From Candidatus Babeliales bacterium (GTDB taxonomy: Bacteria > Babelota > Babeliae > Babelales > JBFXEV01): a DNA stretch of 64,000 bases. The position numbers were made by a program, and so were the translations under genes. Location: the NCBI GenBank assembly GCA_050179755.1, contig JBFXEV010000001.1, forward strand, positions 233,994 to 297,993, in the 5' to 3' direction. A model generated the notes under the pieces. That model made no database searches. It was given only the letters and a program-made list of their open reading frames with translations, and was not told the DNA's origin. Shown here in pieces: positions 963-54,336 of this stretch; position 1 is the stretch's first letter, and every line of letters begins with the position of its first letter.

Positions 963-1430
963 ATGCAAAAATTAATAAATCTTATTATTTTCTCAATTAT
1001 TATACTCATAAGCGTTACATCCCAAGCAATGGACCCAGCTCATATGAGCAGAATAGTAATTTCAAATCAATCAGAACAAAGTATTCTAGTTGCTCCACTA
1101 ACTAATCCTGGATTCATCTTAGAACCCAAAGAACAATCTAAGATCATAGGAATTTCCCCTAGCATAGGCAATAGTGACCTCTATTTCTCATCAACAAAAG
1201 GTGTGTATGAACTTAAAATTGTGCCCCTATTGGACCTATTTAATCCCAAAATAGCCCTTTGTTTACTATTGGCAAGACAAGCCGCCTTTGTCACTCTTGA
1301 GGAAAAAACAATGAAATTCCCACATGCCACAGTTACCGTGCAACTTGATGCTGCACATATTGCAACATTTGTTGAGCGCGAAGGTGTAGAAGAAACAGAT
1401 GAAAAACATGCGCTCCTATTAAAGAAATAA
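963..1430 (+). CDS. Secreted hypothetical protein, paralog of 1460..1978
   Basis: Signal peptide ending SQA-MDP; shares ISNQS.Q.ILV.P and ATFV.REGV.ETDEK.ALLL.K with neighbour. Confidence 0.85.
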   Translation: MQKLINLIIFSIIILISVTSQAMDPAHMSRIVISNQSEQSILVAPLTNPGFILEPKEQSKIIGISPSIGNSDLYFSSTKGVYELKIVPLLDLFNPKIALCLLLARQAAFVTLEEKTMKFPHATVTVQLDAAHIATFVEREGVEETDEKHALLLKK

Positions 1431-1459
1431 AACAATCAAACTCATTTCGTGAGAACCAC

Positions 1460-1978
1460 ATGAAAAAAATAATAAATTTATTTATTCTATTCATTGTTAC
1501 ATTAACGAGTGTTAAATCACAAGCCATGTATCCAACTCCGCCAAGGCCTTATTCTACAGGCTCACATGCTATGCACCAAACTCTATGCGCATTCCAGGCA
1601 ATAATTTCTAATCAATCTACACAACCCATTTTAGTCTCACCACAAGGCAAAGCAGGAACAATTTTATTTCTTGGTCAGTGCGCCGCACCCATAGAAGTTT
1701 CGTCAAAAGGACTGATTAATACTGGTCAAATACTTATTTCTTCAGCAAAAGGTGTAAACCAATTATGCTCATTGACACACCTTCCCAGTAAAGAAGTAAT
1801 AGTTTTTTTATCGTTGGCAAGAGCGAACGACTTTGTGCTAATGGAAAGCATCGCATGTTTATGGCATAAGGCACTATCTTTCTTTATAAAAGTTGATGAT
1901 ACTGGGCTGGCCACCTTTGTTGATCGCGAAGGCGTACAAGAAACTGATGAAAAACTGGCATTACTATTGGAAAAATAA
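1460..1978 (+). CDS. Secreted hypothetical protein, paralog of 963..1430
   Basis: Signal peptide ending SQA-MYP; tandem duplicate. Confidence 0.85.
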   Translation: MKKIINLFILFIVTLTSVKSQAMYPTPPRPYSTGSHAMHQTLCAFQAIISNQSTQPILVSPQGKAGTILFLGQCAAPIEVSSKGLINTGQILISSAKGVNQLCSLTHLPSKEVIVFLSLARANDFVLMESIACLWHKALSFFIKVDDTGLATFVDREGVQETDEKLALLLEK

Positions 1979-2038
1979 GGCAAACAATCCACACTCACTA
2001 AAACAAATATTCTTCAAACACCATCAGGAAAACGCATT

Positions 2039-2923
2039 ATGTTCGGCTTCATAAAAGAAAAACTCACTAAAGTATTCACCCAAGTCACACAAAAATTTAA
2101 CACCCTATTTTCAAGAAAATCGATTGACCAAGAAGCCCTTACCGAACTTGAAAAAATATTAATCCAAGCAGATGCTGGCGTACTCACCACCAGAAACATT
2201 TTAAAACAAGTCACCCTTGAGTGGCAACAAGGCCGCATACAAGAAGGTGCTGACTTGCATCAAGCAGTCAAAGAGCATTTGCTTGCGCAACTTCCTGAAC
2301 ACAAGCAAACCGATTGCCAAGTATATCTGCTTGTTGGTATCAACGGCAGCGGCAAAACCACGAGCGCTGCCAAATTGGCCTCAAAATTAAAAGATGAAGG
2401 TAAACGAGTACTCTTGGTCGCTGGCGATACGTTCCGTGCAGCGGCAGTGGAGCAACTTGCCGTTTGGGCCAAAAAAATTGATGTGCCGTTAATGGTTGGT
2501 GCACCAGAGCAAGATCCTGCCTCAGTTATTTTTTCAGGATGCACGCGCTTTAAACAAGAGGGCTTTGATGCACTTATTATCGACACTGCAGGCAGATTGC
2601 AAACAAAAGTAAATTTAATGAAAGAACTTGAAAAAATTAAAAAAGTAATAGAAAAACAATTGCCAGATCACACCATATGCACGTTACTCACGGTCGATGC
2701 TATGTTGGGGCAAAACTCTTTTGACCAAGCCAAATTGTTTCATGAAAGCACCAAGCTTGATGGCTTAGTGCTTACCAAAATGGATGGCACGGGCAAAGGC
2801 GGCATAGTGTTTGCTATAACCAAGGAACTTTCAGTCCCTGTGCTCTATATTTCATATGGGGAACAACTTGACCAACTCAAGCCATTTGATAAACAAGAAT
2901 ATATTGAGCAATTACTTGGCTGA
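2039..2923 (+). CDS. ftsY: SRP receptor FtsY (short NG-only form)
   Basis: GINGSGKTT, DTFRAAA, DTAGRLQ, TKMDGTGKGG motifs. Confidence 0.97.
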   Translation: MFGFIKEKLTKVFTQVTQKFNTLFSRKSIDQEALTELEKILIQADAGVLTTRNILKQVTLEWQQGRIQEGADLHQAVKEHLLAQLPEHKQTDCQVYLLVGINGSGKTTSAAKLASKLKDEGKRVLLVAGDTFRAAAVEQLAVWAKKIDVPLMVGAPEQDPASVIFSGCTRFKQEGFDALIIDTAGRLQTKVNLMKELEKIKKVIEKQLPDHTICTLLTVDAMLGQNSFDQAKLFHESTKLDGLVLTKMDGTGKGGIVFAITKELSVPVLYISYGEQLDQLKPFDKQEYIEQLLG

Positions 2924-52437: not shown

Positions 52438-53448
52438 ATGTTACCAGCAATCTTAGTTACCGGCGGAGCAGGCTATATAGGCTCACACACTGCACTCTTA
52501 CTTGCGCAACTTGGTTATCAGATTATTATTGTTGATTCTTTTAAACACAAGCAACATTTTAACCCTTCGTGGGCAACCGTTATAGAACAAGATATTGGTG
52601 ATAGAAAAGCACTGGATGCTCTTTTTGCAACACACAACATTAAGGCTGTTATGCATTTTGCAGCAAGCATAGAAGTGGGTGAATCGGTAAAAAATCCTGC
52701 ACTATTTTATGAAAATAATGTGAGTAATACTATTGGCTTATTACAAGTAATGCTCAATCATGGCGTGAATAAAATTATCTTCTCCTCAAGTTGCGCAGTA
52801 TTTGGCAACCCAGAAGGCTTAACATTACATGAAGAACATCCCAAACGGCCTTTAAGCCCGTATGGCAGCACCAAATATATGGTGGAAACTATTTTAGAAG
52901 ATTTTCATAAGGCTTATGGCCTTGAATATGTAATATTGCGTTATTTTAATGCAGCAGGTGCTTGGCCAGAATTTGGCCTTGGTGAACAACATGAACCAGA
53001 AACACATATCATACCGCTTTTATTGCGCGCGGCGTTGCAACGCAAGCCGTTTACCGTATTTGGTACTGATTATCCTACGCCAGATGGCACTGCATTGCGC
53101 GATTATGTGCACGTGCGCGATATTGCACAAGCACACGTACTTGCCTTTAAACATTTAGAAAAAGGCAGGCCTTCTGATTCATTTAATTTGGGGACGGGTA
53201 ATGCAATTTCTGTAAAGCAAATGCTTGAGGCGGTAGAGCGGGTAACGCACACACAAGTGCCCGTTGTGTGGGGAGAGCGCCGAGCAGGAGATCCTGCACG
53301 CTTGCAAGCAGCTCCAGAAAAAGCACATATGATATTGAATTGGCATCCACAATATTCTGAGATTGATTTTATCTTGCAATCAGCGCTTGCTTTCCACACA
53401 AATTTACCTTTAAAGCATGAACCGATGCGTGAAATTCTTAGAAGCTAA
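52438..53448 (+). CDS. galE: UDP-glucose 4-epimerase
   Basis: VTGGAGYIGSH, HFAA.I.VGES, Y..TK, LRYFNAAG, DGT..RDYVHV. Confidence 0.96.
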   Translation: MLPAILVTGGAGYIGSHTALLLAQLGYQIIIVDSFKHKQHFNPSWATVIEQDIGDRKALDALFATHNIKAVMHFAASIEVGESVKNPALFYENNVSNTIGLLQVMLNHGVNKIIFSSSCAVFGNPEGLTLHEEHPKRPLSPYGSTKYMVETILEDFHKAYGLEYVILRYFNAAGAWPEFGLGEQHEPETHIIPLLLRAALQRKPFTVFGTDYPTPDGTALRDYVHVRDIAQAHVLAFKHLEKGRPSDSFNLGTGNAISVKQMLEAVERVTHTQVPVVWGERRAGDPARLQAAPEKAHMILNWHPQYSEIDFILQSALAFHTNLPLKHEPMREILRS

Positions 53449-53476
53449 AGCGAAGTGTAGAATACTCAAAAGTAAC

Positions 53477-53510
53477 AAAAAATGGCCGTCATTTAAGACG
53501 ACCATTTTTT
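53477..53510. terminator. Bidirectional terminator
   Basis: aaaaaatggccgtc-atttaa-gacgaccatttttt between convergent genes. Confidence 0.75.
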
Positions 53511-53544
53511 GTTTGTTTTAACTGAGAAGCTTATTTTTTAAAGC

Positions 53545-54336
53545 TTACTTTCTAGCTTGTTTTCTTGCGGCATTATCTGCTGCAATACGTGCCAAACCAG
53601 TAAGTTTTTTAGGTTGAGTTTTAGTAGTAGCTACAGATTCAGTTTCTTTAGTTGCAGTAACTGAATGAATAACTGGTTCTTGAGCTGCTGGTTGTTCAAC
53701 TTGCGCTACTGGAGCTACTGGTTGTTCAACTGGAGCTACAACCGCTGGTTGTTCTGCTACTGGAGCTGGTTTAACTACAGCTTGACCTAAAACTCGTTCA
53801 ACTACTACTAGAGTCTTTGGTTCAGCTGCAGGAGCAACTGTTTTTTCAACAATTGTGTTTACAACTGGAGCTACTGGAGCTACTGGTTGTTCAACTTGAG
53901 TTGCTGGAGCTGGTTGTTCAACTGGAGCTACTGGAGCTGCTGCTGTTCCTGTTGTATCTTGTGGATTTACAGTAATAGCTTTAGGAGCTCTGTACACATC
54001 CCATACAATTTTACCGCCCATTACAACAAAACCTGCAGTAAAACCTGCTTTGATTAATTGCTCAGGCGTAAAATTAGACATGCTCGTTGGAAGAGTTGCT
54101 AATATTGCTGAACCAATGTTCTTCAAACCTTGAAGTGCATACGCACCATTAGCTTTTAAAGAATCAAATCTTCCTGCAACAACTTCTACAACTGGAGCTG
54201 TTTCAGCTGCAGTTGCTACTGTTGTTACAACAACATCCGCTTCAAGAGCTGGCATGTCAGCGAAATCCATTGCAAAACCTGCAAACGGAACTGATAGTAA
54301 TGTAACCAACAAGGTTACTTTAGAGAGAGAGTTCAT
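53545..54336 (-). CDS. Secreted/membrane A/P/V-rich repeat protein
   Basis: GGAGG RBS; signal GFA-MDF; TM; repeated APVAPVEQP. Confidence 0.85.
   Translation of the reverse strand: MNSLSKVTLLVTLLSVPFAGFAMDFADMPALEADVVVTTVATAAETAPVVEVVAGRFDSLKANGAYALQGLKNIGSAILATLPTSMSNFTPEQLIKAGFTAGFVVMGGKIVWDVYRAPKAITVNPQDTTGTAAAPVAPVEQPAPATQVEQPVAPVAPVVNTIVEKTVAPAAEPKTLVVVERVLGQAVVKPAPVAEQPAVVAPVEQPVAPVAQVEQPAAQEPVIHSVTATKETESVATTKTQPKKLTGLARIAADNAARKQARK

Follow-up and report, generated by a model that had tools for sequence, protein, structure and literature searches.

In the Bacteroidetes, most substrates of signal peptidase I expose a Gln when the signal peptide is removed, and this Gln is cyclised to pyroglutamate (PMC5837995). 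The cyclisation is reported to stabilise extracytoplasmic proteins (PMC10653852; papers are cited here for those parts of their text that were available). This “Q-rule” is the closest analogue of what we describe here: a lineage-wide rule for the first residue after an ordinary signal peptide of the general secretory (Sec) pathway, visible only by proteome-wide counting. The present case concerns a stretch of 64,000 nucleotides from a Candidatus Babeliales bacterium (GCA_050179755.1, contig JBFXEV010000001.1, positions 233,994 to 297,993 of the forward strand; “the window”), in which 17 genes encode predicted signal peptides whose cleavage site is followed directly by Met. Compared to the Q-rule, Met takes the place of Gln and the second position (Asp, Glu, Asn or Gln) is also constrained. 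While most exported proteins follow the Q-rule, the Met rule applies to about a third of the signal-peptide-like proteins of this genome (208 of 675) and skips envelope housekeeping proteins.

The signal-peptide-bearing ankyrins of Babela massiliensis (PMC4378268) and Chromulinavorax destructans (PMC6561590) belong to the same class of proteins, with the same inferred Sec-dependent delivery to a host. Published Dependentiae genomes are rich in signal peptides: in B. massiliensis 79 of 126 ankyrins have one, and in C. destructans signal peptides occur in 44% of coding sequences. The words “methionine” and “cleavage” are absent from the texts of both papers, and the junction rule is not described there. 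More generally, we found no description of the Met rule in the literature that we covered, which included these two papers, PMC4776705 and PMC5837995 and left subscription journals and supplements outside its scope.

Methionine at the predicted signal-peptide junction

The window genome (G000) is a single contig of 1,525,295 bp with 39% G+C. A first-pass annotation of the window had listed 17 junctions at which a predicted cleavage site precedes Met, and had counted 12 of them as Met-Asp or Met-Glu. All 17 open reading frames (ORFs) start as written and all 17 junctions are present; the count of 12 also stands, the other five reading MY, MK, MK, ML and ML. Each of these N-termini combines a stretch containing Lys or Arg with a hydrophobic core and small residues at -3 and -1. 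The quoted junctions lie 16-21 residues in, and the Met comes immediately after the small pair, 19 to 24 residues from the start. Of the 69 genes called in the window, 37 have a signal-peptide- or anchor-like N-terminus. Because Met makes up only 2.0% of residues, its occurrence at one fixed place in 17 of these 37 N-termini is far beyond chance (binomial P about 1e-19). Of the envelope proteins that had been named as lacking the pattern, an FKBP lipoprotein (8615-9097, ..AGC-G) and three barrel paralogs (46493-51755; LHA-R, TKA-A and AQA-L, the hyphen marking the cut) were indeed without Met.

To extend the count to the whole genome, we used our own scripts in place of SignalP. Both the codon-usage gene caller (1415-1419 genes, 90% coding) and the signal-peptide scorer are crude and heuristic, and the cleavage sites are predicted. 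An N-terminus was scored as signal-peptide-like when it had a charge of at least 1 and an 8-residue Kyte-Doolittle mean of at least 2.0; the cut was placed at the best -3/-1 site and the +1 residue was not considered. Met was at the predicted +1 position in 117 of 507 proteins at a loose threshold and in 100 of 418 at a stricter one, and it is the commonest +1 residue among the signal-peptide-like proteins of this genome. At 19 places neighbouring the predicted +1, its frequency was 0-5.3% (2.6% at +2 and 5.3% at +3).

The -3/-1 rule misses proteins with over-long called starts or with Ser, Gly, Cys or Pro at -1, as seen among the ankyrins, and we therefore made a second count from the n-region and h-region only. 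In the 675 signal-peptide- or anchor-like N-termini of this motif-agnostic set, Met peaked 5-8 residues past the 8-residue core (48, 46, 67 and 69 proteins at those four places, and 8-16 farther on), an excess of about 230 proteins. Requiring a small residue at -1 as well gave the set that we refer to as tagged: 208 of 1419 genes, 14.7% of the genome or about one gene in seven. The enrichment of Met at +1 that had been proposed from the window was confirmed by these counts and is far larger than the window set.

The concern that this Met might itself be the real start codon did not hold. Of 100 tagged genes, 48 have a Shine-Dalgarno core (GGAG, GAGG or AGGA, 5-18 nt before the ATG) ahead of the first ATG and 1 has it ahead of the inner ATG; among random internal ATGs it precedes 267 of 7484. 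Judged from these putative ribosome-binding sites, the upstream ATG is the real start of the tagged genes. Two in-frame ATGs about 21 codons apart are a trap for gene finders.

It is strongly supported that the tagged N-termini are ordinary Sec signal peptides with a predicted cut directly before Met. Heuristic scoring found the features of Sec and signal peptidase I substrates (a charged n-region, a hydrophobic h-region and small c-region residues), and the median length of the peptides is 21 residues. The residue before Met was Ala, Gly, Ser, Cys or Thr in 230 of 333 proteins of the unfiltered set. In the tagged set, whose definition requires a small residue at -1, it was Ala in 107, Gly in 37, Ser in 28, Cys in 19 and Thr in 17 of 208, while the -3 position was held by Leu (49), Ala (48), Val (26), Ile (21), Ser (18) and Thr (18). 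With a small residue at -1, a small or aliphatic one at -3 and an upstream ATG start, signal peptidase I should therefore cut directly before Met. These peptides share the n-h-c regions and the -3/-1 rule with classical signal peptidase I substrates and differ from them in having Met as the commonest +1 residue.

Other kinds of N-terminus were tried and rejected. The tagged peptides do not form a special class, as their length, hydrophobicity and n-region charge are like those of untagged ones (P 0.3-0.87). A lipobox-like pattern, as expected of signal peptidase II substrates, lies near the junction in 5 of 208 proteins, and the +1 residue is Met, not Cys; the true lipoproteins of this genome (Pal and FKBP) read ..GC and have no Met. 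Type IV prepilin leaders are short and charged and are cut after Gly, before Phe or Met, Thr-Leu-Ile-Glu and a hydrophobic segment. The pattern M-[TS]-[LI]-[IVL]-E follows the junction in none of the 208 tagged proteins, and their hydrophobic segment precedes the cut. A motif resembling that of twin-arginine translocation (Tat) substrates occurs in 2 of 208, and any RR within the first 12 residues in 5 of 208. The Q-rule itself does not apply, with Gln at +1 in 34 of 418 proteins versus 100 with Met. Membrane insertion was rejected as well, since a transmembrane-like segment follows the Met in 26 of 208 tagged versus 15 of 130 untagged proteins; in the remaining 182 tagged proteins no second hydrophobic segment follows.

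The residue after the Met is also constrained. We compared its spectrum to four backgrounds: Met-X at internal places of these proteins and at real starts, and the +1 and +2 positions of untagged signal-peptide proteins. Asp, Glu, Asn or Gln follows the Met in 137 of 208 tagged proteins (66%) versus 20-22% in the backgrounds (189 of 959, 160 of 744 and 28 of 130 in three of them), the value for real starts in this genome being 22%. Small residues (Gly, Ala, Ser, Thr, Cys, Pro and Val) were reduced to 10% versus 33-45%, and bulky hydrophobic residues to 10% versus 25-28%, while basic residues were unchanged (14% versus 9-19%). Ser was never found after the Met (0 of 208), and Pro was the commonest residue at +3 (32 of 208). 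Compared to internal Met-X, the spectrum differs with a chi-square P of 5e-42.

As far as the comparison of related sequences can show, the junction Met is maintained by selection. Among 34 paralog pairs the Met was kept in 73%, while the flanking positions were kept in 17-44%, except for -1 at 67%. For orthologues we used reciprocal best hits in a genome of the same genus (G001, 1.2 of 1.87 Mb), which were obtained for 71 tagged genes. Both members were tagged in 44 of these pairs. When the other 27 were inspected by eye, 13 kept the signal peptide and the Met, five had lost it, two were artefacts and seven were unclear. The Met was thus retained in about 57 of 62 same-genus pairs, at a flank identity of 11-36% (11-25% from +3 to +13), and the pairs that had lost it mostly had atypical second residues (Phe, Ala, Pro and Pro). 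The tagged proteins are the fastest-evolving class, with a median orthologue identity of 41%; the medians for the other signal-peptide proteins and for all remaining proteins are 57% and 76%, respectively.

Related genomes and classes of carrier

The same scripts were applied to samples of four other Babeliales genomes: 400 kb each of G001, G016 and G019, and 200 kb of G011. By the strict count Met was at +1 in 24 of 81 proteins in G001, 29 of 103 in G016 and 11 of 69 in G019, and the agnostic excess in these genomes was 53 of 142, 61 of 190 and 33 of 157, respectively. In G011 the agnostic count gave 22 tags of 82. An order-wide Met rule across the Babeliales is therefore well supported. Because all 61 available phylum-level genomes belong to this one order, we took E. 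coli K-12 as the sole outgroup; in 250 kb of its genome none of 19 signal-peptide-like proteins had Met at +1, and there was no agnostic peak.

In a relaxed automated count of the 79 ankyrin genes of the window genome, 53 encode a signal peptide followed by Met, 16 have another junction and 10 have no signal peptide; several of the 16 are false signal peptides or anchors. Within the first 800 kb, eight WD40 proteins are annotated, and all of them have the Met. The other carriers are two TPR proteins, one Exo_endo_phos enzyme, one thioredoxin, one macro protein and many orphans; of the 40 carriers called strictly in this part of the genome, 23 match no Pfam family. In contrast, GMC oxidoreductases, M16 and M23 peptidases, glycosyltransferases, UDP-glucose dehydrogenases and thioredoxins are exported without the Met, as are HAD phosphatases, MlaD, PBP1, an ABC binding protein, Pal and FKBP. 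With exported enzymes, lipoproteins and barrels all lacking it, the Met is not equally frequent among periplasmic housekeeping proteins, which was another outcome that would have told against the first-pass proposal. It is well supported that the rule is confined to host-directed and orphan proteins and skips the bacterium's own envelope proteins.

The macro-domain family was tried as a test of whether the Met is a relic and proved uninformative. Its N-termini are not conserved beyond the genus level, and by eye only 2 of 13 signal-peptide-bearing relatives have the junction Met.

Several further groups of genes touch on these classes. About a dozen ankyrin genes without signal peptide are clustered at G000:C1:1396000-1408000, many of them starting MQNFS..W..A, and the same kind is found in the same-genus genome; this is a second, unexported ankyrin class beside the tagged one. 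Across the genome, signal-peptide-like N-termini without Met occur in many families known elsewhere as cytoplasmic: UDP-glucose dehydrogenase, GT2 and GT4 glycosyltransferases, GlmU-like, GMP synthase N-domain and ATP adenylyltransferase. In a 448-aa signal-peptide protein (G000:C1:589744-591087, or L090:9744-11087, forward strand), a GNAT acetyltransferase (Acetyltransf_8) is joined to a peptidase domain of the IrrE/M78-like kind; the protein is predicted to be an exported acetyltransferase. In several tagged proteins, including those at G000:C1:601362-603167 and 1093967-1094896 (both reverse strand) and a G001 homologue, the junction is followed by M[DN]..P[RK]SAHP.., which in one of them continues ..ELVEGRRD. 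This motif may be a translated repeat element.

The tagged genes of the window

A Pfam search gave no family match for 15 of the 17 window proteins, which are referred to here as orphans. The two exceptions are an exported macro-domain protein of 270 aa (26994-27806, forward strand; MHA-MD, Met codon 27057-27059), matched by ADP-ribose-binding and macro models (PF01661), and an exported ankyrin-repeat protein of 395 aa (43253-44440, forward; VSA-MD, Met codon 43325-43327; longest ORF from 43208), matched by Ank_2 and Ank_4.

Eleven of the predicted exported orphans are encoded on the forward strand. Two of them are paralogs, of 155 aa (963-1430; SQA-MD, Met codon 1029-1031) and 172 aa (1460-1978; SQA-MY, Met codon 1526-1528). 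These are followed by proteins of 381 aa (11286-12431; AYA-MK, Met codon 11346-11348; longest ORF from 11175), 459 aa (16502-17881; CFA-ME, Met codon 16562-16564) and 203 aa (17897-18508; ALC-MD, Met codon 17957-17959). Farther along lie genes for proteins of 164 aa (39164-39658; TLG-MD, Met codon 39227-39229), 127 aa (40350-40733; ASA-MD, Met codon 40413-40415), 276 aa (40754-41584; SYG-ML, Met codon 40817-40819), 403 aa (41602-42813; CNA-ML, Met codon 41665-41667) and 95 aa (42901-43188; ASS-MD, Met codon 42961-42963), and for a Pro/Ala/Thr-rich protein of 115 aa (51848-52195; IYA-MK, Met codon 51914-51916). The four orphans on the reverse strand have 191 aa (2912-3487; IKC-ME, Met codon 3425-3427), 150 aa (18548-19000; QYC-ME, Met codon 18941-18943; longest ORF from 19042), 159 aa (44580-45059; LKA-MD, Met codon 44985-44987; longest ORF from 45143) and 263 aa (53545-54336; GFA-MD, Met codon 54268-54270).

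An 18th tagged gene, for a 548-aa ankyrin protein with the junction LTLA-MN, enters the window at 62940-64000 (reverse strand) and extends to genome position 298579, which places its signal peptide just beyond the window edge. The three barrel paralogs at 46493-51755 are in tandem on the forward strand, with 516-540 aa and ordinary signal peptides; the two that were scanned matched no Pfam family. Four further tandem paralogs at 57901-60921 (reverse strand; 309, 126, 268 and 263 aa) have another conserved junction, [IV][QH]A-L[RG]R[LM], and the first of them has a C-terminal DnaJ (J) domain. This points to a family of exported J-domain proteins whose mature N-terminus is fixed in a way of its own.

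What the exposed methionine may do

Eukaryotic rules of N-terminal processing provide a frame for the two-residue pattern. Met is cleaved off only if the next residue is small; Met with Asp, Glu, Asn or Gln in second place belongs to the class of N-terminal acetyltransferase B (NatB), which is bound to the ribosome and acts co-translationally; and Met followed by a bulky hydrophobic or basic residue belongs to the NatC class, whose unacetylated forms are degraded (PMC11735805). Unacetylated small N-termini have a degradation route of their own, while for unacetylated NatB-type ends the available part of the same paper knows of no ligase that binds them. At the sequence level, 137 of the 208 predicted mature ends are of the NatB class, and the tagged set shares with that class the avoidance of residues that permit Met removal. 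On the other hand, the predicted Met-acidic ends would arise by post-translational proteolysis in the bacterium and not on a eukaryotic ribosome.

We infer that the function resides in the mature N-terminus, and we tentatively favor the possibility that the cut exposes a Met-acidic end which stays unprocessed and makes a poor degradation signal in the host cytosol. Signal peptidase I would cut before Met, and the effector would be exported and delivered to the host cell. There it would show a retained Met and then an acidic or amide residue, untrimmed by methionine aminopeptidase. Such an end would contain no classical destabilising residue, no Met-hydrophobic degron and no unacetylated small-residue degron, and would fall in the NatB substrate class. 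Because it would escape the eukaryotic rules of N-terminal recognition, the effector would resemble a host protein that has not been touched and would survive longer. Read in this way, the rules in the available part of PMC11735805 would leave an imported Met-Asp or Met-Glu protein with about the only free N-terminus that has no known recognition route. We rank this host-proof end first because it explains both the choice of Met and the constraint on the second residue.

The first-pass annotation had likewise proposed a host-like N-terminus. The residue spectrum supports this indirectly, as it fits a retained NatB-type Met; the acetylation of an imported protein, however, is doubtful because NatB is described as acting at the ribosome. 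Several other points weigh against a host-proof end. Although it does not depend on acetylation, it presumes arrival in the host cytosol. The N-degron rules derive from yeast, animals and plants while the hosts here are protists, and Val, also a safe first residue, is not enriched at +1. About a quarter of the signal-peptide ankyrins have no Met (the 16 of 79 with another junction, several of them false), as is also the case for most macro-domain relatives. Finally, the tagged set contains false positives, among them ribosomal protein L1, a peptidase-like cytoplasmic protein and two of the window paralogs (59268-60921), whose real cut is probably five residues downstream. From the background frequency of Met we estimate roughly 35 false positives among the 208.

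A second possibility, less probable than a host-proof end, is that the freed Met-acidic N-terminus is a label for a further step: transport through the outer membrane by the type II system, the sole dedicated secretion system reported in the phylum, loading into vesicles, or entering the host. Such a label explains the restriction to one class and the conservation as well as a host-proof end does. The Met sets repeat proteins directed at the host, together with orphans, apart from proteins of the periplasm, lipoproteins and barrels, and it is conserved while its surroundings drift. A short linear mark would also make it easier to recognize hundreds of unrelated, fast-evolving cargoes (median identity 41%), and in Babela the type II system is the sole secretion system detected, according to the available part of PMC4378268. 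However, a purely acidic tag leaves the neutral behavior of Lys, Arg and His and the avoidance of small residues unexplained, some signal-peptide ankyrins have no Met, and no candidate receptor was found. Type II secretion, moreover, is not known to use a linear N-terminal signal. The specific version in which a type II-like machine or a vesicle route uses the label to select about 200 unrelated, fast-evolving effectors from the periplasm seems rather unlikely to us. If true, the label would supply a linear sorting signal to a pathway that recognizes its substrates in a way otherwise unexplained.

It could also be speculated that a lineage-specific enzyme acts on the Met, either a peptidase that prefers Met at P1' or one that modifies or removes it, with protection from exopeptidases as the benefit. 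The exposure and cyclisation of Gln in the Bacteroidetes (PMC5837995) is a precedent, and the window genome has two signal peptidase I genes. We consider this unlikely: unlike the Q-rule, the Met rule passes over housekeeping envelope proteins, and no modifying enzyme was found. A dedicated second signal peptidase is not required, since the tag also occurs (22 of 82) in G011, for which there is only one PF10502 match, although such matches are not copy numbers.

Still less probable is that the inner ATG also initiates translation, which would give a leaderless cytoplasmic isoform beside the exported form. Started from an in-frame ATG at the junction, the cytoplasmic form would be identical to the mature exported one, and the conservation of the ATG fits this idea. 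However, a Shine-Dalgarno core is rarer before the inner ATG (1 of 100) than before random internal ATGs (3.6%), and real starts have Asp, Glu, Asn or Gln next in 22% of cases, not 66%. We found no excess of the alternative start codons TTG or GTG at +1 (7 of 34 versus 17.5% usage, and 4 of 21 versus 27.9%, respectively), and no -10-like pattern in the base profile preceding the inner ATG. The Ala codon before the Met is often GCC (21 of 85 versus 28 of 301), but this Kozak-like GCC-ATG-G context was rejected as a genome-wide codon-pair effect, as for any Ala before an A-starting codon or internal ATG the frequencies are 18-20% GCC and 6-7% GCG (Fisher P 0.30).

Least credible of all is a functionless relic, the old start codon of cytoplasmic genes that gained signal peptides by 5' extension: Dependentiae do have signal peptides on many families that are cytoplasmic elsewhere (44% of coding sequences in PMC6561590) and the Exo_endo_phos domain of one tagged enzyme starts about 10 residues past the Met, but a neutral Met would decay and is instead kept in about 57 of 62 orthologue pairs, its position is exact (2.6% and 5.3% at the next two places), old starts would not give Asp, Glu, Asn or Gln at 66%, signal-peptide forms of the macro family are mostly without the Met, and, with the exception of the L1 artefact, no tagged protein had its Met aligned with residue 1 of a homologue lacking the signal.

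What is new here is the comparison of the second residue with four backgrounds, the division of carriers by protein class and the count of orthologue retention, together with the start-codon, codon-pair and peptidase-copy tests of the Met rule. The rule would be the second lineage-wide rule for a first mature residue after the Q-rule of the Bacteroidetes, here limited to one functional class. Two residues would suffice to list from sequence the likely host-directed effectors of a whole phylum of protist parasites that is uncultivated (some 200 genes in this genome, with most ankyrins and all sampled WD40 proteins among them) and to tell them apart from proteins retained in the bacterial envelope. 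They would also give an experimental handle on how Dependentiae proteins that Sec carries across the inner membrane only can reach the host and survive in it.

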